From positions 1 through 59,982 of the IMG/VR virus record IMGVR_UViG_3300048834_000230: 59,982 nt of DNA; one strand, written 5' to 3'. The DNA is from a virus. Taxonomy: Duplodnaviria; Caudoviricetes. Position 1 is the first letter of the stretch. Each line of letters starts with the position of its first letter. Under the pieces are notes generated by a model that worked only from the letters and a program-made list of their open reading frames with translations, was not told where the DNA came from and made no database searches. Position numbers and translations under genes: made by a program. Of the stretch, positions 6,680 to 40,624 are shown one piece after another.

Positions 6680-7153
6680 ATGACAACTGCTGTAGAAGTT
6701 GTACCTGCAAAAACAGCTACAAAACCCAAGACGAAGGCTAAGTCTAAGTCAAAAACTAAGAGTAAGGCAAAGCAACCAGCAAAGAAAACAGCTAAGAAGC
6801 CTCTTACTGAAAAGCAAAAGGCTAGTTTGAAGAAATTTAAGTCTGGTAGTGAGCATCACGCCTACAATCGTACAAAAGAATCTGGGGGCTTGTTGACAGA
6901 ACGCCAAACCCAAATTCTACGTTTAGTAGTTCTTGGGTGTTCCGTTCGTGAGATTGCTACACTAACAGAATTGGCAGTCTCAACTGTCGATAATCATAAA
7001 GCTGCTATGATGGGCATTTTGGAATGCCACAAGATTCAATTGCTTGTTCTTCGTGCTATCGAAATGAAGATCATCAAGCCAACTGATACCCTTACTCCTG
7101 CTGAAATGAAGAAGCTTGGGGGTGATTGGAAAGATGGTTGGAACCGTCGATAA
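6680..7153 (+). CDS. LuxR-type HTH regulator with histone-like Lys/Ala-rich N-terminus
   Basis: LTERQTQILRLVVLGCSVREIA...STVDNHK. Confidence 0.85.
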   Translation: MTTAVEVVPAKTATKPKTKAKSKSKTKSKAKQPAKKTAKKPLTEKQKASLKKFKSGSEHHAYNRTKESGGLLTERQTQILRLVVLGCSVREIATLTELAVSTVDNHKAAMMGILECHKIQLLVLRAIEMKIIKPTDTLTPAEMKKLGGDWKDGWNRR

Positions 7154-12816: not shown

Positions 12817-14166
12817 ATGGCACTAGACCATGATGGACTGTTCAAAGTAATTGGTAAGTACGTCAAAGCTATTAACATTTGGATGACTTATGTAACTGCT
12901 TTGAATACGTCAAAGGGAGAAATCTTTACAGTCTTAGAAGAAGAAAACTTAGAAGATTACTACAAATCGGTGCCGGATCAATTTGCAGGCTTTCAATCTA
13001 CTATTACGAACTGGATTAGTTCTGTAATTTTGAACACAAGGGATATCCTGTTAGATCGTGATTACGTGATTGATGAGTTATCCATCTATAACTTTCAAGT
13101 TACAGATGTTCTCAATGGTCTATATGACTACATGATAGATAATGCTGAAACAATCAAATCATCTGTTGTAACCCTCGATACAAATGATGTTGATAAAGCA
13201 GCTAGTGAGAGTCTTATATCTATTAATGATGATCCTCAATATCCTATTCTGTTTTGTTCACGTACTTTGGATGGGGTAAATTCACCGGGTAACAATGTTG
13301 CTGCTCATTTACGGTATGACGGCATTGAATCTCAATTAGCTCGATCATGTAAAGTTACTGCTGAATTAATTGATAATTCAGTTGTTGGTTCTGAAATAGC
13401 TCAACTTTATACAGGTGTTACTGCTGTTGAGCCTTATCAACTTCAATCTGAAACACCTGGAAATGGTCCTGCTATTACTTGTGTAGAAGGAACTAATAAC
13501 TTAGTAGCTAATCACTACAACTTTAATTCTTGGTCTGGTGACTCTCCTGATGGCTGGTCTGTATCTGGTACAATCACTACTGATTATGTAGATGGTTCTG
13601 CTGGTAATGGTACAGGACCTTTAAGAATTAAAACCCAAGGTGTTTATGCACTTCAAAAAATAAGTAATTTAGAGCATCACAAGCTTTATTATTTAGGATT
13701 GTTTGCATCTATTAATAGTTCTCCTGGTGGTGGCAACAATGTTATTGGTATTAAGCTACGAACTAATGCCGATGCTACTATTGTTTCACAAACAACCGTT
13801 ACTTTAGATACTGCTTCAACAGAAGATGGAGTTGCATATACATTTTTCAGATTGCCAGCTACGGTAGATTTGAATGATGTTTATGTAGAAGTTGAATATG
13901 TAACAGAAGCATCTAGTGCGGATATCATTGACATAAACAAAGTAGTGCTTACTCCTGCTGTTTATTGGAATGGTTTAGGCTGGGCATATTGGGTGCTGAA
14001 TCACACTAGTTCAATTAAGACTTATGCAGCATTAGGACATAAGACTGATATTGTGATAGCGAACAATGATGCTGGTCTTTTCCAAACCTTCTTTAGAAAA
14101 GCATACGCTATTCAGTTACCATCAGCCGATTCACCTTCAATTGATGACACTCTTGCTAGTGCATAA
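12817..14166 (+). CDS. Putative virion protein with C-terminal carbohydrate-binding-like domain
   Basis: First gene of the structural operon; N-x-NF-x-SW...PDGW pattern; Ser/Thr-rich. Confidence 0.5.
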   Translation: MALDHDGLFKVIGKYVKAINIWMTYVTALNTSKGEIFTVLEEENLEDYYKSVPDQFAGFQSTITNWISSVILNTRDILLDRDYVIDELSIYNFQVTDVLNGLYDYMIDNAETIKSSVVTLDTNDVDKAASESLISINDDPQYPILFCSRTLDGVNSPGNNVAAHLRYDGIESQLARSCKVTAELIDNSVVGSEIAQLYTGVTAVEPYQLQSETPGNGPAITCVEGTNNLVANHYNFNSWSGDSPDGWSVSGTITTDYVDGSAGNGTGPLRIKTQGVYALQKISNLEHHKLYYLGLFASINSSPGGGNNVIGIKLRTNADATIVSQTTVTLDTASTEDGVAYTFFRLPATVDLNDVYVEVEYVTEASSADIIDINKVVLTPAVYWNGLGWAYWVLNHTSSIKTYAALGHKTDIVIANNDAGLFQTFFRKAYAIQLPSADSPSIDDTLASA

Positions 14167-16359: not shown

Positions 16360-17502
16360 ATGGCTAATATCACAGTAGAAGATTTGTTTCGCCATAGAAA
16401 TGTTATGGGGGTGCGAAGTCAGTACAAAGCACCAGCAACCCCTATGAGTAATTTCTATGGGATTGGTCCTGGTTCTGTTCGTGAACGTAGTGAAGTTCGT
16501 GAATTCTCTCGTGACATTTACAACAACACTCGTTTGCTTGCTAATGTTCGACCACCTAAAACCGGTCCTGCAAAAGTTCGTCGCCATCCGGTAGGAAAGT
16601 TCGATGTGCATGTCATTCGCTTGCACGAAGAACTTGATATCTTTGACGAAGACATTATGAAGTATCGTCCGATTGGTGGTAAGATCGGCGATCTTGATGA
16701 GTCTGGTCAAGCATGGGTAGGCCGGGAAATGGGTCGCCTCATGCAGCGTTTCGGTAACACCAATGAGTTCATGGTAACTCGGATGTTCCGTAACGGTTTT
16801 GGTGTCAAGAAGGATGATGATAACTATTCACTAGTTGAAAAATCGGCTTCCGGTTACACCTTCAATGTTGATTATCAAATCCCATCTACCAATGTTGGTA
16901 ACTGTGATTCGATCTTCAGTGATCTTTGGTCAAGTTCCTCAACAAACATTCCTGCCCAAATCTTGGCATTGAATGCTGCTGCGGAACGTGTTAGTGGTCA
17001 TCCGATCAGCGTTTGCTGGATCAACAGTACCGTTCTCACCTACCTGTATAACAATACGATCATTCGTAACATTTCAGGTACTTGGGTACGTATCTTTGAT
17101 TCGCAAACTGGTCAAGAAGTTTCGACCATTGGTGGTCCGAATCGTTCTAGCGGTTACGTTGTAACATTCACGGCTATTCCAAACGTCGTGTTCCATGTTA
17201 CTGATGTTGTCCAGAACGTGGATCAGAAGGTGGATAGCCAAACTGCTGCTAACTCCAGCAAGGTTATGCCTGATGCTCGTGCCTTGTTCACTCCTGCCCC
17301 TGGTGGTGATTGGTACAGCATTGTGGAAAGTGGTGAACCGATTCGTGAACTACCGAATCGTCCTGAATCCCAAATGCGGTATGGCTTCTACTCGTGGCAA
17401 TGCCCATTTGAGAAACCACCTGGACGTACCTTGACGGCAGTAGATAACTACTTGCCTGTGCTTGATATTCCTGCTGCGGTATTCTATGCGACTATCGCTT
17501 AG
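16360..17502 (+). CDS. Major capsid protein (lambda gpE-like HK97 fold)
   Basis: 380 aa; E-loop-like N-half, FNVDYQIP, W...IPAQI, C-terminal YLPVLDIPAAV. Confidence 0.85.
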   Translation: MANITVEDLFRHRNVMGVRSQYKAPATPMSNFYGIGPGSVRERSEVREFSRDIYNNTRLLANVRPPKTGPAKVRRHPVGKFDVHVIRLHEELDIFDEDIMKYRPIGGKIGDLDESGQAWVGREMGRLMQRFGNTNEFMVTRMFRNGFGVKKDDDNYSLVEKSASGYTFNVDYQIPSTNVGNCDSIFSDLWSSSSTNIPAQILALNAAAERVSGHPISVCWINSTVLTYLYNNTIIRNISGTWVRIFDSQTGQEVSTIGGPNRSSGYVVTFTAIPNVVFHVTDVVQNVDQKVDSQTAANSSKVMPDARALFTPAPGGDWYSIVESGEPIRELPNRPESQMRYGFYSWQCPFEKPPGRTLTAVDNYLPVLDIPAAVFYATIA

Positions 17503-21454: not shown

Positions 21455-23305
21455 ATGGCAACAATAGCTAGTCAACTTGGCACTATCTCTGATAATGTAG
21501 AGCTAACCTACAATGGGTATTCTATACCACCCTATGGGCTGAAAGTCCGTACCAGTGAAATCCCTGTTTATGATTCTGCTGGTAAGACAATCAAATATAC
21601 TAGAATCATTCTTACGGCTGATTTTGTAACAACGATTGAAGAAACAGTATCAGGGTATCAAAGCACAGATAATACTGTTGATACCATTCGTAGGAGATTA
21701 CATAACCCCTGTAAAAGACTAACAATTAAAGGCTTAGGCTTAGGGGAAATGGATATAAGACAGACAACTACCCAATTTAATAATGGCCCTAAAACTGTTG
21801 GGTTTGAATATGAACAGTTACAGAGTAATCGTATTGCTCATATTATTTGGACAGTAGAATTTAATGTTGCTAACTGTACTAGTGCATCTCCCCTAAATGG
21901 GTTAATAGTATCATACAACTACTCTCTTAGTTGGGATTGGGATGATCTATCAGGGGGTGTTCGTACTAGAGTAGCAACAGGTGTGGTAGAAACAAACCCA
22001 TTTACCTCAATAGATGGGCAGAGATACAGTAGTTATATTGAAAGGGCTAAAGAACTAATCAAGGCTCAATTTCCTCGTATCAATGGTTATGATCGTAAAC
22101 ATAGTTTTCAATTATCAGAAGATCGTAAAGAATTATCTTTTACTATTACTGATACTGAAAAAATGACAGATCAACCATTACCAGAGCCAATGTGTGATCT
22201 AGTAATGCGGCAAAGCCTTAGTGGTTCTCGCAACAAAGCTAATTTCAATGAATGGCAGTTTGGACTTACTGCTAGTGTATTAGTATTTAAGCCCCGTAAT
22301 GGATTGAGCCTTAGTCATAACAAAACCCTAGCATGGATTGCTCTCGGTCGTATTATCATTGATCGTTTAATTCGATTCAAAACTGTGAGCTACAGTAACC
22401 CTGCTACTGGTGAGCCAACAAGAGCAAGGTTATTTGTTGATGACATTCAGATTGATGATGAAGTAACTGGTAACTCATTTGATTTTTCAGTACGAGGTAC
22501 AATATGGGTAACTACTGAAAAACTATTTGAAGCTACAGGTATGTTCAAAGGTATTACTGGTGTCTCTAACAATTGGGGAGCTAGAGATAATTTCATCATT
22601 GGACAAGGTATAGATGATTTGAATTCTTCTGAGGTTCCTGTATTTATTGGTGGAAGTTTAACTACAGGAACAGGTGAACAAATCATCAATCCTTGTAACC
22701 AAATTATTGAACAAAATAACCCTAGTATCAAATTCATCCCATCATCACAAAATGCCTACATGGCTGAAAGTGAACGACCAGAACCAGATGAAGCATGGAG
22801 ATACTACTATAACCATGTTGAATTAGTTGATGTAAATGAATCAACTGTTAATGTTCCTCTTTCTGAGAACCCTCCTAGAGAAGAAAGCATCCGTGGTAAT
22901 CCAGAGTCCCCTAAAGAAGTCAGTCCTGTGGCTGATCCTGTGGCTGAAACATCCCCTGAAATAGCTGAAGCTTTCCCAACTGTTCATAATCCAACAGGCA
23001 AGCTATTTGTAGTTGTTATGAAGGGAATGGCTGAACGGGATGGATATAGAATCAATGCCCCCAATTTGATAAGCTATGGGGGTATGAAAGCCGTTAAGTA
23101 CGGGCGAGATAAAGTCGCCTCTCTTAATTCTATCCCCAGAAAAGATAGAAATGGTAGAACCATTACAGTGTATAGATTAGTATGGACAAAAACCTATATT
23201 CTTGTTCCTATGGAAAAAGGTAATGGATTTGGTCCTACTCAACCTGAAAACGACAAGTATGTTACTGACGTTCCAAAAATGTTTAGGAAAGAGGAAAACC
23301 AATGA
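21455..23305 (+). CDS. Putative tail-tip/baseplate hub protein
   Basis: 616 aa, beta-rich; follows the tape measure. Confidence 0.5.
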   Translation: MATIASQLGTISDNVELTYNGYSIPPYGLKVRTSEIPVYDSAGKTIKYTRIILTADFVTTIEETVSGYQSTDNTVDTIRRRLHNPCKRLTIKGLGLGEMDIRQTTTQFNNGPKTVGFEYEQLQSNRIAHIIWTVEFNVANCTSASPLNGLIVSYNYSLSWDWDDLSGGVRTRVATGVVETNPFTSIDGQRYSSYIERAKELIKAQFPRINGYDRKHSFQLSEDRKELSFTITDTEKMTDQPLPEPMCDLVMRQSLSGSRNKANFNEWQFGLTASVLVFKPRNGLSLSHNKTLAWIALGRIIIDRLIRFKTVSYSNPATGEPTRARLFVDDIQIDDEVTGNSFDFSVRGTIWVTTEKLFEATGMFKGITGVSNNWGARDNFIIGQGIDDLNSSEVPVFIGGSLTTGTGEQIINPCNQIIEQNNPSIKFIPSSQNAYMAESERPEPDEAWRYYYNHVELVDVNESTVNVPLSENPPREESIRGNPESPKEVSPVADPVAETSPEIAEAFPTVHNPTGKLFVVVMKGMAERDGYRINAPNLISYGGMKAVKYGRDKVASLNSIPRKDRNGRTITVYRLVWTKTYILVPMEKGNGFGPTQPENDKYVTDVPKMFRKEENQ

Positions 23306-23607
23306 GTAGTGTAAATGAATTAGTAGTACCTAGTTACAAAACTAAGATTGTACTACAGTCCATAAATGTTGAATTAGAAGATGATGCGATGGATTTGGGT
23401 TTAGGTTTAGCCCAATTGAAAGAATCTTTCCCTGAAGGTATTACGACAACCGATAGAGCTATAGCTTTTGCAGAGTTTTTTAATAAACGATGGGAAGTAG
23501 CTTTGAATGGTAATATATTATCCCCAGGTAATGCACTTGCTATTTTGAATCCACTTTCAAAGCAGATGCTTGAGATAAAAAAAAACTTAGAAGATACGTC
23601 GAAGTAA
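23302..23607 (+). CDS. Tail assembly chaperone-like protein (G form)
   Basis: Ends ...EIKKNLEDTSK with A9C slippery site. Confidence 0.6.
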   Translation: MSSVNELVVPSYKTKIVLQSINVELEDDAMDLGLGLAQLKESFPEGITTTDRAIAFAEFFNKRWEVALNGNILSPGNALAILNPLSKQMLEIKKNLEDTSK

Positions 23608-23861
23608 CTTATCAGTACAAGATAAATGCTTTTACATTAGATGAGAATCAAGTAAAAATTCTTCATTACTTTATTCCCTCTATGATTGCACAAGATGAAC
23701 TGTCACAAAGACGTACACAAGCTGAATTAACAGAGCGTAGGTTCCACGATCTAGTATGGCTAGCGACAGATGACAAAGAGAAAGCTGAAAGGGCTGCGGC
23801 ATGGCTATCACTAGAACAGAGTTATCAAAAGACTACACACCAGAGTACGAAGTCCCGTTAG
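23302..23861 (+). CDS. -1 frameshifted extension product (GT form)
   Basis: A-AAA-AAC at 23580-23586; the -1 frame is open about 90 codons to TAG 23859-23861 and fills an otherwise empty gap. Confidence 0.65.
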
Positions 23862-25051
23862 CCTACGGGTCTAGTCCTTATGGTAACTATCATATCAATC
23901 CTAATAGACCACGTTTCTACAACTGGTATATCCCGTTGATGATGCGTGATCCTAGATTGAAATTTGGTATCGAAATTTTGAAAGGTCCTATCCTTCAGAA
24001 TGTTGATTTCCAATTAGATTGTTATGATTCTGAAGCAGGTGACTTAGTTTATAAAACCCTACAAAGGTTTATGAATAAAGCTGCTGGTGCTGCTTTAACA
24101 ACTATGCTTGTATTTGGTTTCACTGGTCAAGAAATCATGTACTATCAGGATGAAGATTCAGGAGAATATGAATTTGATTATCTCAAGTTCCTATCACCTT
24201 ATGATGTACGTCCTGTATCCAAAGAAGGTCACTTGACCGGTATGAATGTTTATCGAACCAAGTATGCTACACAAGGTCCGCAGTATGTCCCCATTCCAAA
24301 ATGTTATTGGGCAGTCCATGAGCCTGAAGTAAATCATTGGTTCGGTCGTACTCGTTTGTTTGGTGCATTTGAGCCTTGGTGGGAGAAATGGGGTTATAGA
24401 GGTTTTCGTGATCTTAGAGCCAATTGGTTCTATCGTAATTCCTTTAATGGTCCCATCATTAAGTATCCTAGTGGTTCTACACCTGTTGCCTACGATCAAG
24501 AAGGGAATGTTACTAGGAGAACTCCCAATCGCCATATAGCTATGGAAATGATTGATAAGTACCAAGCTGGTAGTGGTGCTGCTATTCCATCATTTTCTGA
24601 AAATTCTGGACAAGTTTGGGATTTGATACCATCGGATGCTAGACCAGTTCCTGAAGGGCTAGCTGTCTATGGTAGAAACCTAGACGATGAAGAATGGGAA
24701 GGATTAGGCATTCCCCCTGAAGTAGTTGTTTCGGATGGTACAGGGGCCTATGCGGGTCGTGTAGTGCCACAACAGGCTTTCTATTCTACCTTAGAAGAAC
24801 CTGCTAACTGGATAATTCAACCAGCTTGCAAATATATCTGCGATCCTCTATTATTTCTTAGGTATGGTAAGAAAGTACGTTACGACGTAAAAATCACAGG
24901 ACTGGTAGAAGCATTACCTACAGCATCAGATGGTATGTATCCATCAGATGTAGAGGCTCATAGTCAAGCTGTTATGGATGGTACTGCGGGCCAAAATCAA
25001 TTACCTAACCCTGGTCAAAAACAACTACCAAACTACAGTCAACAACAATAG
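23801..25051 (+). CDS. Portal protein (Mu gp29/DUF935-like)
   Basis: MMRDP, FGF..QEI.Y, HWFGRTRL...W..K, P.I.YP motifs. Confidence 0.75.
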   Translation: MAITRTELSKDYTPEYEVPLAYGSSPYGNYHINPNRPRFYNWYIPLMMRDPRLKFGIEILKGPILQNVDFQLDCYDSEAGDLVYKTLQRFMNKAAGAALTTMLVFGFTGQEIMYYQDEDSGEYEFDYLKFLSPYDVRPVSKEGHLTGMNVYRTKYATQGPQYVPIPKCYWAVHEPEVNHWFGRTRLFGAFEPWWEKWGYRGFRDLRANWFYRNSFNGPIIKYPSGSTPVAYDQEGNVTRRTPNRHIAMEMIDKYQAGSGAAIPSFSENSGQVWDLIPSDARPVPEGLAVYGRNLDDEEWEGLGIPPEVVVSDGTGAYAGRVVPQQAFYSTLEEPANWIIQPACKYICDPLLFLRYGKKVRYDVKITGLVEALPTASDGMYPSDVEAHSQAVMDGTAGQNQLPNPGQKQLPNYSQQQ

Positions 25052-25067
25052 AAAGGTGGTAAACAAA

Positions 25068-25274
25068 ATGGCACTACCTAATTTTGGTGGGGCGGGAGTT
25101 AGAAAGCGAATTCGCAAGCCTGCTACTAAAGCACGTTTCCGAGTCAAGAATCGTAAACCTGGAATGAAATCAGCAGCATCAACTACATCGTCTTCTAGTG
25201 GTGCTTCTATTAAAAGTTCAGTTCGTAAAACAACCCGCAATGCAATTATCATTGCTACAACCCGTCCTAGTTAA
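25068..25274 (+). CDS. Small basic protein
   Basis: AAGGTGG RBS; Arg/Lys/Ser-rich. Confidence 0.55.
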   Translation: MALPNFGGAGVRKRIRKPATKARFRVKNRKPGMKSAASTTSSSSGASIKSSVRKTTRNAIIIATTRPS

Positions 25275-25294
25275 TTTCACAAAGGAGTACCCTA

Positions 25295-25558
25295 ATGGGA
25301 AGCCGGAAGATTCTATTAATCATTGTCTGTTTGATTTTCATGCTATCTGCTGTAGGAGCAGAAGCAGGGTTATTTTTTCGACAAGGTAGGGGTTTTTTCC
25401 CTAATGCCCGTGGTGTAGCTGGTCGTGTTGGTGATCGTCAATCTCGTAGAGTCAATCGACGTTCCACAAGACAAGCTTATCGTGGTTACGGTTACAATTA
25501 CAACTATCGTTGCATTAATTGCAACAAAACGAAAGCAACAGCTATTCCTGTTAGTTAG
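25295..25558 (+). CDS. Secreted Arg/Gly-rich small protein
   Basis: Signal peptide ending AEA; AAGGAG RBS. Confidence 0.65.
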   Translation: MGSRKILLIIVCLIFMLSAVGAEAGLFFRQGRGFFPNARGVAGRVGDRQSRRVNRRSTRQAYRGYGYNYNYRCINCNKTKATAIPVS

Positions 25559-25581
25559 TGTGAGTACACTACGATTCAGGG

Positions 25582-25953
25582 ATGATTCGTATTGAAGCCA
25601 AAGAGGGAAAGGATTTGGATATGAAGTCTGAAGGAATCGACCCTCTTTGGCTTCTCGTTATACTTGGACCTATCGGTTCAATTGCTGGTGTTGCCGCATT
25701 ATTAAGAAGTCAGTCTAAATTAGATCGCAGAGCATTCTTTGCTGCCCTTCTAAACAGTGGTTTATTAGCAGTAGTTGTTGCTTGTGGCCTATTTCATTAT
25801 TATGGAACACAAGTAGTATGGTTAGTTATTAGTGTCTCTATCTTATCTGGTTTAGGTGGTATTGCCCTACTAGACTTTATATTAGCTTTAGCAAGATCGG
25901 TTCTAACAGCATGGGCAGGGAGATATAAAGATGATTCCCAAGATAAAGATTGA
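25582..25953 (+). CDS. Holin-like multi-TM protein (alternative start 25621)
   Basis: Three to four hydrophobic helices, SGLGG motif, charged C-terminus. Confidence 0.65.
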   Translation: MIRIEAKEGKDLDMKSEGIDPLWLLVILGPIGSIAGVAALLRSQSKLDRRAFFAALLNSGLLAVVVACGLFHYYGTQVVWLVISVSILSGLGGIALLDFILALARSVLTAWAGRYKDDSQDKD

Positions 25954-26452
25954 AGCCCCTTGGTATTACCATACTTTTATTGCCCTAGTCTTGTCGATTA
26001 TGCTTGGGGTTATTTTAACACAAGCTTTAGCCCAAAGAGCTAATGAGATTGCTCGTAATAGAGACTATGTAGAAAGAACAGAACGAGAAAAGGTTCTCTT
26101 GCTAGAAGCTATTACCGATGTTGATTCGCCGCAACTAATCACTGATGAAAATTTTTATTCTATTTGGTCTAATGCCAAGTTTCGATCTTTACTAGGTAAG
26201 AAAAAATCTGAATTAGTAGGCACAAGTCTAATTGATATTTTACCTAAAGAAGTATCAGACCAACTAACTAAAATAGTTAAGACTTACAAATTCAAAGGGA
26301 GTAACCCAAGTATTTCAGTAGAAGGTTACATACAACGTGATGATGTAATAACACCAGTATTGATTACATTTATCTCTGTTGAGAAATCTTGGACTCCCCA
26401 AAATGATGGTTATTTTATTTTTACGATCTTACATGAGAAAACAGAGAGTTAA
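25931..26452 (+). CDS. Membrane-anchored PAS-domain protein
   Basis: N-terminal TM, coiled linker, ITDEN....WSN..F..LLG....ELVG.SL.DILP PAS core. Confidence 0.8.
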   Translation: MIPKIKIEAPWYYHTFIALVLSIMLGVILTQALAQRANEIARNRDYVERTEREKVLLLEAITDVDSPQLITDENFYSIWSNAKFRSLLGKKKSELVGTSLIDILPKEVSDQLTKIVKTYKFKGSNPSISVEGYIQRDDVITPVLITFISVEKSWTPQNDGYFIFTILHEKTES

Positions 26453-26455
26453 GCC

Positions 26456-29062
26456 ATGTTCTCAATAGGTGGGCAACCGGCAATCAATTCAGCACCCATC
26501 CTAAAGAGTCTTCGCAAAAGTCAAAGACGTACAGCATGGTGGCACTACAAAGTCAATTCATTTAAGCATGTTCGTGGTGCTTATCCTTCTATTGGTTATA
26601 TTCTATTAACCAAAGCTTCACTAGATCAAATAAACATCTATGAGCCTAATACTCTAAATGTAACTTCTGAAATTGCCATCCCTAATGTTATCATTGATAG
26701 CCTTGTAGCAGTTAATCCTGGTCGTGCTGTTACACCTGAAACAGTTTTTGTAGCTACATTAAAAGATAATCGCCATCACTTTGAGACTAGCTATCTCACT
26801 GAAGATTTCAATATAGTAGAAAAGCACGATAGACAATCTCTATCGTATCTCAAAGCTACTACTAATGGTGGTACGCCTTATACATGGCAATCACTGATTG
26901 ATTACCTATGGTCTATTCCTTTTGCTGCCATTGGTGGTCTAGTCCAAGACACAACTCTCTATCCTACTTCAAAGCCTTGTAACTATTTCTGCCGGGGTAG
27001 GTCTGTAGCTGATGTACTTCATTCTGTCTTAACTGATCTAGGATTAACTCTCTACCTGGATACTGATGGTTCTTATCATATCCGGGGGTTAGATACCAGT
27101 GCTATCACGTATGAAGATGCTTTCCAAGAAATGAAGCTTCAGAATATAATCAGAGAAGTACGACATTTAGATACTAACTTTTCTGAGATTCCTGGTAGAT
27201 TGGCTTTCTGTTTTCCCTCCAGAAAATATCTATCTGACAACGATCATCAATCTTTTGATAGTCGATTTCTAAAAGAGCCATACTATCAACAAGATAAAAC
27301 CACAAGTTCACCTTATTACTATGCAACATTAGATAATAATTTAACACTACCTGTTTATTGTAATCCTGTTGCTTTCTATAGCCCCCAAGGTGGTTCTGAT
27401 CCTGTTAATAAATCAGAAATTGATTCGTACATAGATAAGGTACAAGACAGATACCTACGGAAGATGGCTTCCAATTTTGGACCTGTTCATACTGTAGCTG
27501 GTCTAGTACCGATGTATCCTGGTCGTAGCTTAGCTGCTGTAACATGGTTCATTAACGCTACTGAATCTGGTCAAACAGGTATCCCCCAAACGATCTTAGA
27601 AGTTCCCGAATCAGCAGCTTATAACCATCGCGGCCCCATTTTTTCTTCCAGAGAAGGATACCCAAATTACCCTAGAAATGCTTTTAGTAATTATCCACAA
27701 CATAAATCTCTTGTGGTTAAACCTACTAGTTCAATTGAGAAAGAAAAATCTGGTACTGCAACCATTATCAATTATCAATTGAATTCGGATGGTACACCAA
27801 AAGAAGTAACATCTAGTGATATTGAGATACTTAATCTCACGAATACCACCCTTAAATCAACTGAAAAATATACGGCTGATTTCCAATGGGAAACCCAAAA
27901 GTGGGCAGTTTGGCCCGGAGCTAGTACCAATACAGATAATGGTGGTAATCCTACAACTAATACAGAAGCAGATACACCTGTTGTTAGATTTAGACTGTTA
28001 GAAGATTTGTCTTTAGGTGATGGCTATGCTGATGCACAACTTATCAATATCAATGGGGATGCTATTGATTTTGAAGGTAATGTACTAGGTAATCCTCCAC
28101 CAGTTCTCCCCTGGTTTCCTAATACTCCTTACGATGTTGGTGATAGATGTATTTCACCTACAGATGTTTTTGATACATTACCACCTTTTACGGATAAACT
28201 ATGGTCACAAGGAGATACCATACGATGTAAAGAGTTTCATGTTTCATCAAATATATTTGATTTATTTAGCGGTGAAACTCTTCTTTGGGAAAAAGCACCT
28301 AGCATGGGTACTGGTAAAATTGTAGTTGTTGACCCTTCAGAACAAGGTAGGTTTTATGGTTATGGTCCATACAATGTTCCTATTACTGGTGTTGAAGGTG
28401 GTCAAAATGTAAAAGGCTTTACTGGTGAGTGTTGTCATTTAGGTGATCCTCATGGTACTGATTATGCAGGTACAGGTTTACCTGGATACTTGATTATCAA
28501 CATGGAAGGACCAGCTAGGACTGTTGAAGGTGTAGTTTTAGCTGGTGGGGGTGGGGGCCAATTCTATGCACGCATAACCGGTTGGTATGGTGCTGCTCCA
28601 AATAATAGACCACCCAAGCTAACAACAGGGGGCGGTTCTGAAACTAATGAAAACTTACTAATCAATTGTAGATTAGATGAAGACATACCAAAAGCTGATA
28701 CAAAAATTCGTGCTGATTTTGATGAACAAACAGGAGATTGGGTACTCACTGATTACATTGTTCAACAGGAAGATGGTGGGGGTGATCCTGGTACCCCTGG
28801 TCAAATTATACTAGGTAAGCTAAAAACTGATTTAACTCGTTTAATGGGGTCAGTAGTAGTTGTTGTATTATCCTTTACAGGTGATAATCCTGGTACTGAA
28901 ATTACAGCCTATAATCCTGAAGATTTACTTGATCCTACAAATGGGTTTCAAGGAATTTTCCTAGGTAATAAAGATGGCCGGTGTACAGTGCTTTCTACTA
29001 GTACTGGTTATCACCTGATTGAAGTTCAAACCCCTAGAACAATACCATCATCTATTGTGTAA
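26456..29062 (+). CDS. Large tail/baseplate protein
   Basis: 868 aa; Tal/hub-like N-terminal region and repeated small beta-domains. Confidence 0.55.
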   Translation: MFSIGGQPAINSAPILKSLRKSQRRTAWWHYKVNSFKHVRGAYPSIGYILLTKASLDQINIYEPNTLNVTSEIAIPNVIIDSLVAVNPGRAVTPETVFVATLKDNRHHFETSYLTEDFNIVEKHDRQSLSYLKATTNGGTPYTWQSLIDYLWSIPFAAIGGLVQDTTLYPTSKPCNYFCRGRSVADVLHSVLTDLGLTLYLDTDGSYHIRGLDTSAITYEDAFQEMKLQNIIREVRHLDTNFSEIPGRLAFCFPSRKYLSDNDHQSFDSRFLKEPYYQQDKTTSSPYYYATLDNNLTLPVYCNPVAFYSPQGGSDPVNKSEIDSYIDKVQDRYLRKMASNFGPVHTVAGLVPMYPGRSLAAVTWFINATESGQTGIPQTILEVPESAAYNHRGPIFSSREGYPNYPRNAFSNYPQHKSLVVKPTSSIEKEKSGTATIINYQLNSDGTPKEVTSSDIEILNLTNTTLKSTEKYTADFQWETQKWAVWPGASTNTDNGGNPTTNTEADTPVVRFRLLEDLSLGDGYADAQLININGDAIDFEGNVLGNPPPVLPWFPNTPYDVGDRCISPTDVFDTLPPFTDKLWSQGDTIRCKEFHVSSNIFDLFSGETLLWEKAPSMGTGKIVVVDPSEQGRFYGYGPYNVPITGVEGGQNVKGFTGECCHLGDPHGTDYAGTGLPGYLIINMEGPARTVEGVVLAGGGGGQFYARITGWYGAAPNNRPPKLTTGGGSETNENLLINCRLDEDIPKADTKIRADFDEQTGDWVLTDYIVQQEDGGGDPGTPGQIILGKLKTDLTRLMGSVVVVVLSFTGDNPGTEITAYNPEDLLDPTNGFQGIFLGNKDGRCTVLSTSTGYHLIEVQTPRTIPSSIV

Positions 29063-29067
29063 ATAAC

Positions 29068-30321
29068 ATGGATTTAATCAATCAACTAGGTAATACTGAT
29101 ATGATGCTTATGGCATCCTATCCAAATTTCTTACCTGTATTCACTTCAATAGAGATTGTTAGAGCGGGTTCAGAGTCATCCCCTTTAAGATATGTTGATA
29201 TTAACCAAAGGTTACTAGAAACATTAGCTGCCCCTGGTGCTGTAGTTTGGAATCCTTCAACTAGAGAAGTATGGTTAGCTGGTGCTGATACAAAACAGAT
29301 TAGAAAATATGATGAATGGCTTACAAATATAGATGATCCAAATACATTAGTTACCATTCTTGAATCAGGTAATAATACAATCTATGGTGGTTGCCATTTA
29401 GGTGCTACTGGTGTAGGTCTTTTCAGGGATGTTATTCTAAATACTTTTCTAGTAATTGCTGGTGGTACAAAAATTTTTGCCATTGATATGCAATCTGGTT
29501 TTGTATCCAAGTGGTTTGATACTGCTACGCAAAACACAGAAATAGGAATTTCAAGGATTGTAGATATTTGTCAATTAAGTGCTACGACCCAACGGGGTCC
29601 TGGTGCCGCCATCATAGGTACTTTAGAAAATGGTAGATACTTCATAGGGGAAATCTATGGAGTAAATGCTATTAAAATTTGGAATACTCTTGATGCAGAT
29701 GTTACTACAGATATTCCTGGGGGTACTCGTACTACTAAACAAGTTTATGTTGGTTTAGGTCCATCTGGTGCTGCTAGTGTTTATGTCTGTCAAGAGAATT
29801 GGCAAGATGATGTATTCTTTGAAGAACTTGATAATCCTTTTGGTGGTACTCAACATTTTGAATCTACGGGAAGATGTATTGTTCGTAGATTTAGCAGAGG
29901 TGTTTTCGATGGGGACCCGATTCAAGGGGCTAATGTACTCTTTAGTTATGATATACCTATCCGAGTAAGTACCATTATACAAAATAATGGTTTTGATCCC
30001 CCATTTACAAGTGATATTAACATTGATCGTGAAGGTGGCGGTATAAAAACATGGGCTATTGATTCTCAATCCAATAGTGGAACACAACCTAGAGTTTTAC
30101 ATTACCGTGGTCGTTGTGGATTATTTTATTTCACACCTGTTGATAATGAGATTCCTTTTGCTGCTGTACCCTTTCTTAATCTAACATCAGCAGCAGGTTA
30201 TCGTTATTCAAAATGGTGGAGTACAGGAATAATCGAAAACCAAACTGCTCAACTTTCTGGGGGTGGTTATACGAACCTTCTTATAAACGGTTTAGGTACT
30301 GCCCCCCGCTATCTTATGTAA
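29068..30321 (+). CDS. Putative beta-propeller receptor-binding/tail protein
   Basis: Beta-rich repeats; last gene of the structural operon. Confidence 0.45.
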   Translation: MDLINQLGNTDMMLMASYPNFLPVFTSIEIVRAGSESSPLRYVDINQRLLETLAAPGAVVWNPSTREVWLAGADTKQIRKYDEWLTNIDDPNTLVTILESGNNTIYGGCHLGATGVGLFRDVILNTFLVIAGGTKIFAIDMQSGFVSKWFDTATQNTEIGISRIVDICQLSATTQRGPGAAIIGTLENGRYFIGEIYGVNAIKIWNTLDADVTTDIPGGTRTTKQVYVGLGPSGAASVYVCQENWQDDVFFEELDNPFGGTQHFESTGRCIVRRFSRGVFDGDPIQGANVLFSYDIPIRVSTIIQNNGFDPPFTSDINIDREGGGIKTWAIDSQSNSGTQPRVLHYRGRCGLFYFTPVDNEIPFAAVPFLNLTSAAGYRYSKWWSTGIIENQTAQLSGGGYTNLLINGLGTAPRYLM

Positions 30322-30372
30322 TTTTCTCCAGAAAAATTAATAGTAGACAAACTATCTTTAATAGGTTACACT
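30322..30372 (+). promoter_or_regulatory. Promoter of the replication operon with upstream dyad motif
   Basis: TTTTCT-CC-AGAAAA 30322-30335; TAGACA 30344, 17 nt, TACACT 30367. Confidence 0.6.
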
Positions 30373-30378
30373 TGAACT

Positions 30379-30711
30379 ATGTTCAATATTGTTCATAAAC
30401 CCATCCATGAAGAACGTGTACGATTAGGCGTACCCGATGCAGCCAAAAAACTAGGGGTAGATCGCAGCTATGCCTACAAGCTTGTCAAAGAAGGTAGAAT
30501 TCCTTCACACAAATACTTAGGTAAGACTTGCGTATTTCTTGAAGATTGTATAATCCCACCTACCAAACGAGAAGGTTCCGTTGGTAGACCTATTGGTGCA
30601 AAAGACAAGAAAAAACGTAAAGTACCTAAGAGAAAGAAGAAAGTAGGCCGAAAGAAAAAACGGAAAACTACTTCAAAGAAAACTTCTAAGAAAAAATCAT
30701 CTGTAGCATGA
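30379..30711 (+). CDS. Excisionase-like (HTH_17) DNA-binding protein with AT-hook-like GRP and Lys-rich tail
   Basis: VPDAAKKLGVDRSYAYKLVKEGRIPS. Confidence 0.8.
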   Translation: MFNIVHKPIHEERVRLGVPDAAKKLGVDRSYAYKLVKEGRIPSHKYLGKTCVFLEDCIIPPTKREGSVGRPIGAKDKKKRKVPKRKKKVGRKKKRKTTSKKTSKKKSSVA

Positions 30712-31073
30712 AAGCCTATTATGGTCGTATAACAGGTATGACTCTAACTCAATACTGTGCATTCCTCTTTGCACGTAATGAGAATAGGACTACCAAACTA
30801 TTAGATGAATCTCTACTAATAAAAGTCAAAGATGAGTTTAGGCACTATCCTGAACTTAATATCACTCTTGATCGTTTACGTGATATTCGGCATAAGTATA
30901 ATGCTGGTGATGTTACAAAAGTATTTCCTTCAACACCATCATTCCGCTACTCTAAATCAGGTGAAATTCTTAATAGGTGGAATAAACCTATATCACAAAA
31001 GAGTATTAGACTCTACCTAGAAAAATTTCATCAAAGACGAAAGCGTAAATCAAAACATGCTAAAGAGAGATAG
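30708..31073 (+). CDS. Hypothetical protein
   Basis: ATGA overlap. Confidence 0.7.
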   Translation: MKAYYGRITGMTLTQYCAFLFARNENRTTKLLDESLLIKVKDEFRHYPELNITLDRLRDIRHKYNAGDVTKVFPSTPSFRYSKSGEILNRWNKPISQKSIRLYLEKFHQRRKRKSKHAKER

Positions 31074-35280: not shown

Positions 35281-35893
35281 AATCTTTGATGAGCATGTAA
35301 ATGCCCTATTTGATAAATGCAGAGCCATACTAAAAGGTAAAGGAATTGACTACAATGCAGGTACAGATAGATTCCACGGATTCAAAGACAGAGCATTCAA
35401 AGCAGGTATAACTAAATACCAAGGATGGTACATATTATTCAGTAAGGGTTTAGGTGCCATAGAACGATATGTTCTAAAAGGTGCAACTGAATCAGAAAAT
35501 ATTCATGTCCGTATTCAAGACGCTATCAATTATCTCATACTTCTTGATGCAATGATTACTGAAGATGAACAATCTTCAGATACAGAATCAGCTTTTCTTA
35601 AACAAGCTGAACTTCTTAATAAGGCTGGTTCTTCTGCCCCAGTTACATTACCATTAACTCCTGAAGCATTAGAACTGCTTAAAAATTATGTTCCACCTAA
35701 GCATTTCACTCCTTTTCTATTTGAAGTAGATACACTAGTTACAAAACATGGCATTGAATGCAAGGTAACATCACGTAGGAGAACGGAAGCCGGAAATGTC
35801 TACAACCTTGAAGCTACGGAAACAGGTTCGATCTTCCAAGGTATCCCGGAATCCGAAATCAAACCTAGAGGAATCGTCCCTAGTAAGCCTTGA
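35270..35893 (+). CDS. DUF1599/Nmad1-like all-alpha nucleotide-associated protein
   Basis: KG.DY....D....F, K...I, E....RI.D.INYL.LL. Confidence 0.7.
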   Translation: MKFEIFDEHVNALFDKCRAILKGKGIDYNAGTDRFHGFKDRAFKAGITKYQGWYILFSKGLGAIERYVLKGATESENIHVRIQDAINYLILLDAMITEDEQSSDTESAFLKQAELLNKAGSSAPVTLPLTPEALELLKNYVPPKHFTPFLFEVDTLVTKHGIECKVTSRRRTEAGNVYNLEATETGSIFQGIPESEIKPRGIVPSKP

Positions 35894-37901
35894 CTGTGAA
35901 ACAACTGGTCTAGCTCTCAAGAATGGTTGTAAACCTTTTCTAGTATCTATTACCTATCCTGATGGTACTAGCTATGCTTGGGAATGGTCCGTTAATTCCC
36001 GCACTAGAAAAGTTAATGTCAAACATGATGATTTAATCGACATAGCAAAACATGTTAGAGACAAAACCGTAGTCTTTCATCATGCTAAGTACGACGTTGA
36101 AGCGATGGCATCTATTGGTTTCTTCTTTCTTTTCCCAGAAGAAAGTTGGCCCCAAGCTTGTTCACCTTTAACACTTAATACCAGAATCTTTCCCTATAGT
36201 CCTATCAGAGTACGCTGTAAAGGATGGGAAGATACTCTACCTGCTAGCCATATAGATTCATCTAAGGGAACTCACAAACTCAAAGAATTAGGTCTACTCC
36301 ATTTAGACTATCCTGAAACAGATGAAGAGAAACTACTAACAGCAGTTAAGAAAGCTGTTGATGGTATTGCCAAGAAAAAGAAATTCAATCTCTCTCGGAA
36401 ATATGCCGGTAAGAATGAAGATGGCTCTGACAAAACTGATCCTGAATACGAAGCTGATTATTGGGTACTCAAGGCTCTTGATCGTAAGAACACTCTATGC
36501 CGTCAATATGCCAATGGAGATACAGAACGTACTCTACTCTTATGGATGCTTCGCTATAACAAACTCTTTGAACAAGATGTTAATGCTCGCTTATGCTATG
36601 AGAGAGAGAAGAAAGTCATTCCTGTAGTTTATGCTATTGAGAATCACGGCATCACTATCAGTAAGCATCGTTTGGAATACTACCTAACTAAACTCAAGAA
36701 TGAATCCGAACCTAATCGTGAACATGCTGCTAAGATTGCCTGTAAGACTCTTAAAGTAAAATCATTCAATACAAATTCTTACCCCCAACTAAGGGAGATA
36801 CTTTACTCTAAGAAAGGATTTAACTTTCCAGTCCTAGAGTACACTGATAAAGAAAACCCATCGACAAGTATTGGTAGTGATGAAGTCCCTGGACCCCTCA
36901 TCAAACTACGCAATGACTATTGTGATAATAAACCAACAGCAAAGAAATTCTTACAACATCTCATCATTAGTAAGAAGTATGCAACAGGTGTAAACTACTT
37001 ATCTAATTACAAAAGAGCTATTCAACAACATTGGGATAATGCTAGATGGGTACTCTACCCTACTCTTAATCCCAATGGAACTGACACAACTCGATTTAGT
37101 AGTTTTAACCCAAATGCACAAAATATCTCCAAAAGGGCTGAAACTCCCTTGCGTAATATATTCTGCCCCCCTAAAGGTAGAATCTGGTTTGCTATTGATT
37201 ACCAACAGTTACAACTACGAATCTTTGCATTTGTCACTCAAGCACAAGTCTTGATTGATGCGTTTCGTGCTGGACATGATTTTCATGCCACTGTAGCTAC
37301 TGGTATCTTCAAGAAAGCTTTGAAGGAAATCACAAAGCTAGAAAGACGTATCGCTAAGAATACAAACTTTGCATTGATCTTTGGTGCAACTAAAAAGAAG
37401 GTCAACAAAACAGCCGGTATAGATAATGCGTATGAACGCTTTGAAAAACAATTCCCAATGGTGACAGCATTTCTCAACAAAGCTATCAGACAAGTACGAT
37501 CTACTGGCGGAATTGTTACACCTTTCGGTTATCCATTAGAAGTGGATCATAACAAACCATACGCTGGTGCTAACTACATAATCCAAGGATGCGAAGGGGA
37601 TATCGTCAAGAATGCTATGATTTTGCTTGTCCATACTGGACTAATTGATTTCAAAGATTATAGTCTTATTCTTCAAGTTCACGATGAACTATTGATTGAA
37701 GCCCCTGAAAAGTACAGCAGAACCCGTATTCGTAAGATTATGGGAATCATGGAATTCTGTGGAACTTTACTTGATATGGAAACACCAGTAGAAGCAGAAA
37801 TCATTACTACTCATTGGGGTAAAGGTAGTAAGATTAAACTCAAACCCATACGTCCCAACCTTAAACAGTGTAAAAAAATAATCTACGGTCTAGCAGTATA
37901 A
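35796..37901 (+). CDS. polA: Family A DNA polymerase (3'-5' exonuclease plus polymerase domains)
   Basis: DCETTG, HHAKYD, YA.GD; T.TTRFSS..PN.QN; DYQQLQLR; R..AK..NF..IFG; VHDE. Confidence 0.95.
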   Translation: MSTTLKLRKQVRSSKVSRNPKSNLEESSLVSLDCETTGLALKNGCKPFLVSITYPDGTSYAWEWSVNSRTRKVNVKHDDLIDIAKHVRDKTVVFHHAKYDVEAMASIGFFFLFPEESWPQACSPLTLNTRIFPYSPIRVRCKGWEDTLPASHIDSSKGTHKLKELGLLHLDYPETDEEKLLTAVKKAVDGIAKKKKFNLSRKYAGKNEDGSDKTDPEYEADYWVLKALDRKNTLCRQYANGDTERTLLLWMLRYNKLFEQDVNARLCYEREKKVIPVVYAIENHGITISKHRLEYYLTKLKNESEPNREHAAKIACKTLKVKSFNTNSYPQLREILYSKKGFNFPVLEYTDKENPSTSIGSDEVPGPLIKLRNDYCDNKPTAKKFLQHLIISKKYATGVNYLSNYKRAIQQHWDNARWVLYPTLNPNGTDTTRFSSFNPNAQNISKRAETPLRNIFCPPKGRIWFAIDYQQLQLRIFAFVTQAQVLIDAFRAGHDFHATVATGIFKKALKEITKLERRIAKNTNFALIFGATKKKVNKTAGIDNAYERFEKQFPMVTAFLNKAIRQVRSTGGIVTPFGYPLEVDHNKPYAGANYIIQGCEGDIVKNAMILLVHTGLIDFKDYSLILQVHDELLIEAPEKYSRTRIRKIMGIMEFCGTLLDMETPVEAEIITTHWGKGSKIKLKPIRPNLKQCKKIIYGLAV

Positions 37902-38527: not shown

Positions 38528-40624
38528 ATGCCCCTTGTTATGAAGACGAAAAAAAAGGCAACCAAGAAAGTTGCTACCCAAGAAGAACCAATTGACCATA
38601 TCAAACTCTTTGAATTTCATGGTGTAGTTTTTCGGGAAGAAGAAGCACAACAGAAGATCGGTCGTTGCCCCTTTTGTAATAAGCCTCTCAAGTTCCATGT
38701 CGCTACCAAAACTGGTCAATTCGATTGTAAGTCTTGTGGTGTATCCGGTAACAAATACACCTTCTTACAAAAAATCTACGATCATTGGCACAGAAAAACC
38801 ACTAAAGCAAACCGGCTAAAGCTAGGTCGTGTTCGTGGTTTACCTTCTGCTGCTTTCATGCACGTAGCCTATCGTAAAACCGATGGGACCTATCTTCTTC
38901 CCTCCAGAAATGAAAATAAGTCTATGGTAAACATAGGTACTTATTCTGGAAAGAAAGGAGATAGAATCTATCGTACTCCTGGTTGTAAACTACACCTAGG
39001 CGGAATAGATCAACTCAAAGAGCAAGGACCCATTTACCTAGTTGAAGGTGATTGGGATGGTGATGCTCTACGTTACCTACTCAAGAAAGTTGTACCGAAG
39101 AAAGAAGCATGGTCTGTCTTAGATAGCTCGGCTAATGTCTTCAAAGAAGAATGGTATAAATTCTTTAAGAATCGTGATGTAGTTCTTATTGGTGATAATG
39201 ATACCCCTGGTGAAAATGGTGTTAAATCTAAGATTGAACATCTACACAAAGCAGGAGCAAGAATTATTAAACGTCTTCATTGGCCGGAATCCTTTGAAGA
39301 TGGTTATGATCTAAATGATTTCATTGCTGATAACAATGATGACTATGAAGAATGTTGGACTAATCTTCAGTCAATGATTAAGTCTGTCTCTAAGTCTTCA
39401 CTATCATCGTCGCCAGCTAACAATCTCAACATCACTAAATTCTCTCAAGTAGTAACAGAATTCAAAAAGCATATTCATCTATCTTCAGGTATGGAAGATG
39501 CTTTAGCTGTTTGCTATGCCGTTATCTTTTCAGCTAGAGAAGAAGGGGACCCTCTTTGGTGTTTCCTAGTAGCTCCCCCTGGTGGTGGTAAAACATTACT
39601 ACTACAAAACATGGCTGGAAATGAATGGACTCACTTTGAATCTTCTCTAGGTCCTAAAACCCTAGTATCTGGTTGGAAAGATTCTGCCGGTGAAGATCAA
39701 TCCCTATTACCTGATATCATAGGTAAAACTTTGATTGTTAAAGATTGGACTGAAATTATGTCCAAACCTACTAGCGATCAAGAAGAAATCTATGGTGTCT
39801 TTCGTGGTGCTTACGATGGCCGAGTAGAACGCTCCTTTGGTAATGGATTAGCACGTAGAGTCTACCCTGATCCTGATTCTGGATTCAAGACTTGCCATTT
39901 CTCTCTACTAGCTGGTGTTACTCACAAAATCTTTGGTGATAACCGTGCTAGTATGGGTGAACGCTTTATTAAATTCCGGCTTGATTCAGGTGATAACTCC
40001 GATCAAGTTCGTAGAGCTATCAGCAATGCTCTTAAAAGCAAAATGGCCGAATACTCTCTACGTGATGTTTCTGCTTCATTTCTCCAAAAAGAAATTACTG
40101 TTGAAAAACTTCCAACTCTACCTAAGTTTATGGAAAACCGAATCGTCTATCTAGCAGAGATTGCTTCAGCTATTCGGGTACAAGTAGAACGTAGACAGGG
40201 GCAAATGCTCTATCGTCCTGAAGCCGAAGTAGCAACCCGCCTAGCAAAACAGTTAGTACGCCTCTCACGTTTCCTAGCTGTAGTCTTTGGTGAATCTGTT
40301 GTTTCTAACAAAAGCTATCGTCTAGTCCAAAAGGTAGCTCTTGATACTTGCTACTCTTGGCATCAAGACGTATTCCTACAAGTCTCTAAACACAAATATG
40401 GTGCTACCAGACTTGATATTGCTCATAAAGCAAAGATGGCCCCTTCTACAACAGATAGGTGTCTCTTTGATCTATTAGAAATCGGTGCTGTCATAAGAGA
40501 AAAGGAGTTAGTTAATGGTAAAAAACTAGATAAGACAATGGGTGCTGAAGCTTACAAATGGAAACTTTCTCCACCAATGAGGAAAGCCTATACTGAATCC
40601 CGTCTTTCACTACTTAAACTCTAG
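38528..40624 (+). CDS. Primase-helicase: Zn finger, TOPRIM, AAA+ (MCM-like) and wHTH
   Basis: CPFC...C..C; VEG..D; DND..G; APPGGGKT; KD.TEI; AYDG...R; ERF. Confidence 0.85.
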   Translation: MPLVMKTKKKATKKVATQEEPIDHIKLFEFHGVVFREEEAQQKIGRCPFCNKPLKFHVATKTGQFDCKSCGVSGNKYTFLQKIYDHWHRKTTKANRLKLGRVRGLPSAAFMHVAYRKTDGTYLLPSRNENKSMVNIGTYSGKKGDRIYRTPGCKLHLGGIDQLKEQGPIYLVEGDWDGDALRYLLKKVVPKKEAWSVLDSSANVFKEEWYKFFKNRDVVLIGDNDTPGENGVKSKIEHLHKAGARIIKRLHWPESFEDGYDLNDFIADNNDDYEECWTNLQSMIKSVSKSSLSSSPANNLNITKFSQVVTEFKKHIHLSSGMEDALAVCYAVIFSAREEGDPLWCFLVAPPGGGKTLLLQNMAGNEWTHFESSLGPKTLVSGWKDSAGEDQSLLPDIIGKTLIVKDWTEIMSKPTSDQEEIYGVFRGAYDGRVERSFGNGLARRVYPDPDSGFKTCHFSLLAGVTHKIFGDNRASMGERFIKFRLDSGDNSDQVRRAISNALKSKMAEYSLRDVSASFLQKEITVEKLPTLPKFMENRIVYLAEIASAIRVQVERRQGQMLYRPEAEVATRLAKQLVRLSRFLAVVFGESVVSNKSYRLVQKVALDTCYSWHQDVFLQVSKHKYGATRLDIAHKAKMAPSTTDRCLFDLLEIGAVIREKELVNGKKLDKTMGAEAYKWKLSPPMRKAYTESRLSLLKL

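Follow-up and report, generated by a model that had tools for sequence, protein, structure and literature searches.

A holin-like gene and an overlapping membrane-anchored PAS gene in a phage genome: a candidate lysis-timing pair

The DNA analysed here, which we call the window, is the whole of the 59,982-bp IMG/VR record IMGVR_UViG_3300048834_000230, a complete phage genome with direct terminal repeats that is rated 100% complete and has a guanine plus cytosine (GC) content of ~0.39. Our subject is an insert of three genes within it, encoding a cationic secreted peptide, a small holin-like membrane protein and, overlapping the latter, a membrane-anchored protein with a PAS domain. An original prediction, made from the letters of the sequence, had noticed three open reading frames (ORFs) within 25295-26452, the second with possible starts at 25582 and 25621, and had suggested that the PAS protein acts either as a sensing antiholin or as a decoy for host histidine kinases. 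All three ORFs are present, at 25295-25558, 25582/25621-25953 and 25931-26452, and, since each has conserved homologues in a collection of 5.8 billion proteins, they are real genes rather than products of chance:

25295..25558, + strand: secreted or signal-anchored, highly cationic peptide of 87 amino acids (aa)
25621..25953, + strand: holin-like protein of 110 aa with three transmembrane (TM) segments; an alternative ATG at 25582 would give 123 aa (+13 residues)
25931..25953, + strand: overlap of 23 nt in which the holin-like gene ends and the next gene starts; the Shine-Dalgarno sequence of the latter, AGGGAG, lies inside the holin gene
25931..26452, + strand: TM-helix-PAS (TM-PAS) protein of 173 aa

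The holin-like protein and its family

The holin-like protein has the layout of a class I holin: it is shorter than 150 aa, carries three TM segments and ends in a charged hydrophilic tail (...RYKDDSQDKD), and this combination of size, segment number and charged tail is common to 25 aligned relatives. Three to four TM segments had been proposed earlier; the three hydrophobic segments are there, but a fourth was not seen. The N-terminal tail is short and acidic, the first loop basic (RSQSKLDRR) and the C-terminal tail charged, and the predicted topology has the N-terminus outside and the C-terminus inside. No other small multi-TM protein of the window occupies a real gene slot.

Both of the possible starts that had been pointed out, 25582 and 25621, exist, but a lambda-like dual start was rejected as a conserved feature, two of the three near relatives starting where the window has its second ATG. 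The second ATG (25621) has an AAGGA box 7 nt upstream, and the first (25582) is directly abutted by a purine run. We have taken 25621 as the start because two of three relatives begin there and because its Shine-Dalgarno sequence is the better placed.

Taken alone, the protein weakly resembles the PHROG holin families 6384, 785 and 175 (E 1.1e-3, 0.032 and 0.07), in each case over nearly its full length. It has three close homologues, at 54-70% identity, and a family profile made from four close sequences brings up 297 small proteins at E<=1e-3, 96 of them at E<=1e-10, from a set of 1.84 billion representatives. Among 141 aligned members, 85 match the phrog_6384 holin (best E 2.7e-10), 30 the phrog_785 holin and 24 the phrog_175 holin, the "holin" labels of PHROG being annotations and not experimental tests; no other PHROG family is matched by more than two members in the same scan. 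Matches to Pfam are weak, with 12 of the 141 members hitting Phage_holin_3_2 and eight hitting Phage_holin_3_3, the LydA family. The family shares a motif ...S(L/F)AG(L/V)AALLRS... that ends the first TM segment, SAxLNSG at the start of the second and AGLGG within the third. It is thus at the family level, through these profile matches and through the lysis-gene neighbours that some relatives have (see below), that the holin-like identity holds up, the window protein alone matching the holin profiles only weakly.

The TM-PAS protein, its pairing and the haem-PAS kinship of its relatives

The second protein starts inside the holin-like gene, the 23-bp overlap at 25931-25953 being exactly as described in the original prediction, and such an arrangement would couple the translation of the two genes. 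A short N-terminal tail is followed by one TM segment (residues 16-34), a long helix reaching to ~62 and a PAS core at ~63-168; the protein ends 5 residues past the last PAS strand. In Pfam, PAS_9 matches residues 69-168 with 23.9 bits (E 5e-5; 24.7 bits in a six-frame search, where the only match in the window is at 26135-26434). This is below the cut-off of 27; several relatives are at or above it (P0003 30.9, P0004 27.0, G021 36.6, G001 27.2 and G048 34.3 bits), the G001 protein also reaching PAS_4 with 23.6 bits against a cut-off of 23.1. The close homologues of the window protein are three, at 48-55% identity.

A first AlphaFold model, built with four sequences, was poor (predicted local distance difference test score, pLDDT, 56.7) and matched PAS structures only. 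With an alignment of 13 rows, the mean pLDDT rises to 84.8, and the model has a single helix over residues 11-62 and then a canonical beta/alpha/beta PAS core, with four helices interspersed among strands at 68-71, 76-80, 128-136, 139-151 and 160-168, which together form the five-stranded antiparallel sheet and flanking helices typical of the PAS fold. Foldseek returns 357 matches in the PDB at E<=1e-3, all of them PAS domains among the matches listed, and the top twelve include an HTR-like PAS of Haloarcula, EcDOS, FixL and another haem-binding PAS. Consistent with the earlier description of a PAS protein without output, Pfam lists no kinase (HisKA, HATPase_c) or other output domain for the TM-PAS protein at E<=1.

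The window protein has histidines only at residues 14 and 168, none of them in the PAS core, and it has no cysteine, which rules out LOV or cysteine-based sensing. All four proteins of the window clade share the first of these, His14 (~25976), immediately ahead of the TM segment, in the contexts PWYYH, PWWGH, PLYAH and PAWMH. An i-spanin reading of the TM-PAS protein was also rejected, the C-terminal part being a PAS fold and no lipoprotein ORF of at least 30 aa being embedded in the gene or following it.

The evidence for a link between the two proteins comes from relatives. Their loci were gathered from IMG/VR (57 through one family alignment, 3 through another and L002 through the window-clade alignment) and from metagenomes (7). 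In 10 diverged phage or metagenome lineages, whose GC content ranges from 0.39 to 0.65, a TM-PAS gene lies directly downstream of the holin-like gene; the spacing is between -41 and +51 nt in all ten, the genes overlap in seven, and the window and G048 share a spacing of -23 nt. Phages of such different GC content probably have different hosts. As with an antiholin, the partner gene lies beside or overlaps the holin gene (10 of 10 lineages) and its product has one TM segment. When 47 records were searched in six frames with PAS_9, four gave matches (G001, G008, G018 and G021), one each and always in the gene right after the holin-like gene; a second such search of four records gave matches in G048 and the window and none in G049 or G050. 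The PAS partner is the sole PAS_9 match in each of the six positive records. Four of the five metagenome loci that retain downstream sequence are likewise paired with a TM-PAS gene (L072, L073, L075 and L078), and the locus L076 has two small TM-coiled-coil ORFs in its place. When 3141 ORFs from 68 sources are searched with a hidden Markov model made from five verified partners, the four metagenome proteins score E 5e-17 to 1e-5 and that of the window 2e-4, and the hhalign comparison of the window clade with four other partners gives E 3.7e-4 in the same register. The conserved adjacency supports a functional tie between the TM-PAS and holin-like proteins.

The pair also moves. G001 is a complete 53-kb phage whose packaging, head, tail and replication genes are syntenic with those of the window at 22-44% protein identity, and its holin-PAS pair lies not in the tail region but among the replication and packaging genes, with the primase block on one side and a counterpart of window 7235-8173 on the other. 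As the pair of G001 sits elsewhere and the insertion site of the window is empty in G001, we conclude that the pair relocates as a unit. In a tree of 68 holin-like rows, without L064 and without L063, which gave no match, 50 form a tight clade without a PAS partner and the remaining 18 are long-branched, 12 of them PAS-linked, counting P0006 and P0007, which are linked by inference only. The other rows among the 18 are L062, L069 and L070, with a multi-TM partner, and L076, L061 and the incomplete L074. In the first three, the gene that overlaps the 3' end of the holin-like one (L062 4221-4610, L069 3242-3763 and L070 3261-3605) encodes a multi-TM protein of 114-173 aa, which may take the place of the PAS protein as membrane partner; the holins of these three loci form one clade. 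In the 50-row clade, the upstream neighbour is either an actin-like ATPase of 333 aa or a protein of 151 aa and the downstream one a 430-860-aa protein of no known family, and in some members a single-TM ORF of 51-65 aa overlaps the end of the holin-like gene.

The nature of the PAS domain is best seen in the partners outside the window. Searched against PDB sequences, a profile of nine non-window partners finds FixL first (4.9e-16) and then DosP (3e-15), these two proteins making up all of the top 11 distinct chains. A conserved Arg-His of this profile aligns with the histidine of the F-alpha helix of FixL and DosP, which is reported to be the proximal haem ligand (His194 in SmFixL, His200 in BjFixL; PMC10765370). 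The histidine is kept in seven of the nine partners and missing in L016 and L073. The TM-PAS family looks like a haem-PAS lineage of which the window member would be a derived form that has probably lost the haem. The PAS domains of most relatives being of FixL/DosP type with the proximal histidine, the cue to which the ancestral protein responded was probably a haem ligand, be it O2 or another, or redox state. The idea of a redox or O2 cue gains weight for the family from the match to FixL and DosP. As a mechanism, the sensing antiholin is plausible, better defined for the family through this kinship, and weakest for the histidine-less protein of the window.

Genomic setting and lysis genes

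Two conserved genes form the borders of the insert:

25068..25274, + strand: small, very basic protein, left border
26456..29062, + strand: structural (tail-like) protein of 868 aa, right border, whose N-terminus is homologous to a 963-aa ORF of G001

The left-border protein probably starts at an internal methionine (MALP...) of the ORF 24978-25274; at the same site, G001 has a 50-aa basic ORF that starts with MALP, and its next gene is the homologue of the 868-aa one. The 868-aa protein has no match in Pfam, PHROG or the PDB. Only 20 nt and 3 nt separate the insert from its flanking genes and, over 23000-31000, the counts of promoter and terminator signals equal those of shuffled background; with such small gaps and no excess of signals, the three genes lie inside a long late gene array.

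The first gene of the insert encodes, as had been noticed, an Arg-rich secreted peptide. A hydrophobic, signal-like N-terminal segment is followed by an AxA|G site (AEA|G), and the predicted mature peptide of 63 aa has 12 Arg, 2 Lys and 1 Asp, a net charge of +13 and a CxxC near the C-terminus. There is no lipobox in the 87-aa peptide, the only cysteine of the signal region being preceded by valine (read by eye), and the peptide has no Pfam or PHROG match. Its single homologue, of 82 aa (42% by BLASTP, 56% in a MAFFT alignment), strongly conserves the mature part and has diverged in the signal segment. By analogy, the peptide may be a candidate disruptor of the outer membrane in the manner of the disruptins.

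The absence of an adjacent endolysin, also remarked on earlier, extends to the rest of the genome: none was found beside the insert or elsewhere when 50 proteins were compared with PHROGs and 40 with Pfam, and six-frame searches of the window for Amidase_2, Phage_lysozyme, SLT and Peptidase_M15_4 gave nothing. Nothing meaningful came from PDB sequence searches of the 417-aa, 209-aa and 868-aa proteins of the window, nor was there a usable match in the Atlas for the 209-aa TM protein. A novel type of lysin may hide among the ORFs of the window and G001 that match no family, for example 41602-42231 of the window, whose product combines a TM segment at the N-terminus with a Pro-rich linker.

Lysis genes do adjoin the holin-like gene in relatives. 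In the complete 34.8-kb genome G018, the holin-like gene has an Amidase_2 endolysin gene directly upstream (60 bits, E 7.6e-18) and is overlapped on its other side by the gene for a 160-aa TM-PAS protein. In the provirus L061, a 146-aa TM-coiled-coil protein and an overlapping 85-aa lipoprotein, spanin-like by eye, precede the holin-like gene. The region 2995-4333 of L061 forms a compact putative lysis block of DUF5675-like (144 aa), i-spanin-like, o-spanin-like and holin-like genes. The 144-aa upstream protein is DUF5675-like by the annotation of one record; with no match in the PDB, its reading as an endolysin is not supportable.

The wider genome was laid out from PHROG and Pfam scans:

2359-2844: RusA
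6680-7153: sigma-like protein
9743-12190, + strand: large terminase
16360-17502: major head protein, listed with a head decoration protein and an adaptor
up to 30321: poorly matched run of structural genes
from 30379: replication block with UDG, exonuclease and Sak4-like protein
35796-37901: DNA polymerase
38528-40624: primase

A scan of the window found no tRNA genes. The 707-aa protein at 42910-45033 (+) contains an intein (LAGLIDADG_3 32.7 bits and an Intein_splicing match). With 815 aa, the large terminase is of unusual length: the PHROG match runs from residue 20 to 781 and yet covers only 450 profile positions, and a separate weak match lies at residues 108-212. This suggests inserted sequence, perhaps a second intein or a homing element. 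Portal-like matches (phrog_113, E 1.3e-9; Portal_Mu below cut-off) fall on a 416-aa protein at 23801-25051 (+), far downstream of the head genes. The 449-aa gene that adjoins the terminase (12817-14166, +) carries no portal-like match and corresponds in G001 to two tandem paralogues on the opposite strand. Among the genes on the early/packaging side are those of a DUF4886 protein (5648-6676, +; 35.3 bits) and a Laminin_G_3/concanavalin-like protein (9035-9697, -; 35.6 bits), which may have carbohydrate-active or receptor-related functions.

No relative was found among cultured phages, either for the DNA of the region or for the two proteins (megablast and tblastn, 50,697 records); IMG/VR held no match to the window PAS protein, the PAS clade alignment or the 868-aa neighbour; and nothing was found in the species genomes searched for a prophage or host with the alignments A2 and A9. 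The DNA polymerase of the window is ~23% identical to actinophage polymerases in tblastn, which is uninformative on the host.

Readings of the pair and known systems

The best explanation of these observations, to which we give a probability of roughly one half, is that the insert is a lysis-related part of the late array, in which a holin is coupled to a PAS partner that acts as an antiholin-type regulator of timing. The 110-aa protein would be a class-I-like phage holin that accumulates in the inner membrane and then permeabilises it. The TM-PAS protein, translationally coupled to it through the 23-nt overlap, would be its dedicated partner and most likely an antiholin-type timer or brake, whose single TM helix would meet the holin within the membrane or act through the cytoplasmic loop and tail of the holin. 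The juxtamembrane helix and PAS domain would be cytoplasmic, probably as a dimer, and would set or tune the moment of triggering. In the ancestral form, the state of the PAS domain would be set by a haem ligand such as O2; in the window clade, which has probably lost the haem, the domain could serve for interaction, either independently of a ligand or with a different one. The cationic secreted peptide may handle the outer-membrane step in the way of a disruptin.

Several observations weigh against this explanation. The window protein's own holin match is weak (E 1.1e-3), with none at E<=1e-3 in the 141-member scan, and the link of the window-clade PAS domain to those of the other partners does not go beyond E 2e-4 to 4e-4. 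In all four members of the window clade, a 4-residue gap falls at the histidine column and the PAS core has no histidine, and the PAS profile of the clade finds no PDB sequence at E<=1; the 13-row alignment behind the structural model contains FixL-like relatives, which may bias its nearest folds towards the FixL group. Neither of the two proteins resembles its counterpart in phage P1: hhalign gives a probability of 0.2% for the holin family profile against LydA and of 0.07% for the window-clade PAS profile against LydB. Without a recognised endolysin in the window and G001, both of them complete, the lysis pathway as we read it is incomplete, and the 50-row clade (L008-L060, six of the records being ~200 kb) has neither a PAS partner nor obvious lysis neighbours. 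Finally, the positive-inside count is near even, with 22 Lys plus Arg on the N side of the TM segment and 30 on the C side across nine TM-PAS rows. The PAS domain is probably cytoplasmic, mainly by analogy with haem-b PAS sensors, the Lys plus Arg count leaning slightly the same way. Prediction of the complex between the holin and TM-PAS proteins (alignments A2 and A1) gave an ipSAE of 0.00 in both runs, without controls, and is evidence neither way.

Among the alternatives, the one that survives best, unlikely as we consider it, is that the TM-PAS protein works together with the holin without inhibiting it, as a positive co-factor, a second component of the hole or a handler that tethers or releases an unrecognised endolysin. 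The adjacency of the genes shows co-function and not the direction of the effect; the absence of a recognised endolysin in the window (G000) and G001 makes an unusual handling of lysin possible; and the multi-TM protein that follows the holin in three lineages indicates that more than one kind of membrane partner can occupy this slot. As a rule, however, PAS domains serve in sensing or regulation, and in the few characterised systems the known genes that overlap holin genes are those of antagonists, lydB of P1 being annotated as "LydA antagonist".

Somewhat less credible still, and in our view improbable, is that the pair is a mobile accessory module, serving superinfection exclusion, the manipulation of membrane potential or another form of host takeover, and that its "holin" label is an artefact. 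Such a reading would draw on the PHROG labels being annotations only, on the 50-row clade without lysis neighbours, on the moron-like change of genome position and on the lack of similarity to P1 LydA; it is opposed by the Amidase_2 endolysin that adjoins the pair in G018 and the spanin-like pair in L061, by the class I size, three TM segments and charged tail of the holin-like protein, and by its place inside the late array, where promoter and terminator signals do not exceed shuffled background. The decoy of the original prediction, here taken to mean that the output-less PAS domain would heterodimerise with that of a host sensor kinase, for instance a FixL-like O2 sensor, and so redirect signalling in the infected host, found no specific support and has very little to recommend it: PAS domains commonly dimerise, the protein has no output domain and the PAS domains of the partners have their nearest relatives in sensor kinases and phosphodiesterases, but a decoy leaves unexplained the strict adjacency to or overlap with a holin gene in 10 lineages of very different GC content.

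Returning to the holin and its PAS timer, we offer tentatively, and with more doubt than conviction, a broader proposal: that the pair represents a widespread, undescribed module of a holin and a membrane-anchored, output-less PAS of the FixL/DosP haem type, that this, if it works as its build suggests, would be the first antiholin to read an intracellular cue (O2, redox state or a haem ligand), and that the window clade is a derived form in which the haem ligand was lost and the partnership kept. In open-access papers and bioRxiv, we found no paper on a PAS protein in a phage lysis cassette, and the only phage PAS sensor that surfaced there was VqmA-Phage. Lysis timing sets the burst size and fitness of a phage and, to our knowledge, few ways are known by which phages adjust it to conditions, the lysis inhibition of T4 and N4 being the classic ones. 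A holin hard-wired to a PAS domain, of the type with which bacteria sense O2, would add a new and compact input to lysis timing and, if true, a phage could advance or postpone lysis according to the respiratory state of its host. The two-gene module is directly testable in laboratory strains and could serve as a signal-gated lysis switch. Beyond the pair itself, our analysis provides family-level context for a three-TM holin family of ~300 representative sequences and flags two complete phage genomes, the window and G001, in which no known type of endolysin is found.

Known systems resemble the insert in different parts. With S105/S107 of lambda, the holin-like protein shares a class-I-like three-TM layout, a charged C-terminal tail and two in-frame starts, but the upstream start is here unconserved and without a well-spaced Shine-Dalgarno sequence, and the candidate regulator is a separate gene. 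The peptide resembles the "disruptin" gp28 of phiKT, described as a small cationic lysis peptide (10.1101/515445): both are small, strongly cationic phage peptides, gp28 being encoded with lysis genes in a phage without recognisable spanins. The likeness is one of description, and the window peptide differs in having a signal-like segment and a CxxC.

For the PAS domain, the nearest known proteins are FixL and DosP (EcDOS), which the nine non-window partners match best and with aligned histidine, and which are among the nearest folds of the window model; the phage TM-PAS, with one TM helix and one PAS domain, differs in having no kinase or phosphodiesterase output, and the window clade further so, by its 4-residue deletion at the histidine and its lack of a PDB match by profile. 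As a phage-encoded PAS sensor that ties a chemical cue to the lysis decision, VqmA-Phage of vibriophage VP882 offers a parallel (PMC8284805); it is, however, described as a soluble transcription factor, whereas the TM-PAS protein is membrane-anchored, without a DNA-binding domain and paired with a holin.

Similar in concept is RI of T4. It senses superinfection from the periplasm. RI is reported to be a membrane-anchored antiholin whose globular domain makes lysis timing responsive to a signal, and the T/RI pair thus shares with our proposed pair an antiholin that has a separate sensing domain (PMC11413866). In the window, the globular domain is a PAS domain and probably cytoplasmic. The closest gene arrangement is that of P1, annotated as having the holin gene lydA and its overlapping antagonist lydB at the head of a virion-protein operon and unlinked to the endolysin gene lyz: in both phages, directly after a gene for a small multi-TM holin, known in P1 and proposed here, comes a second gene that overlaps it and encodes a known or proposed modulator, the partner in the window being a TM helix joined to a PAS fold in place of LydB.

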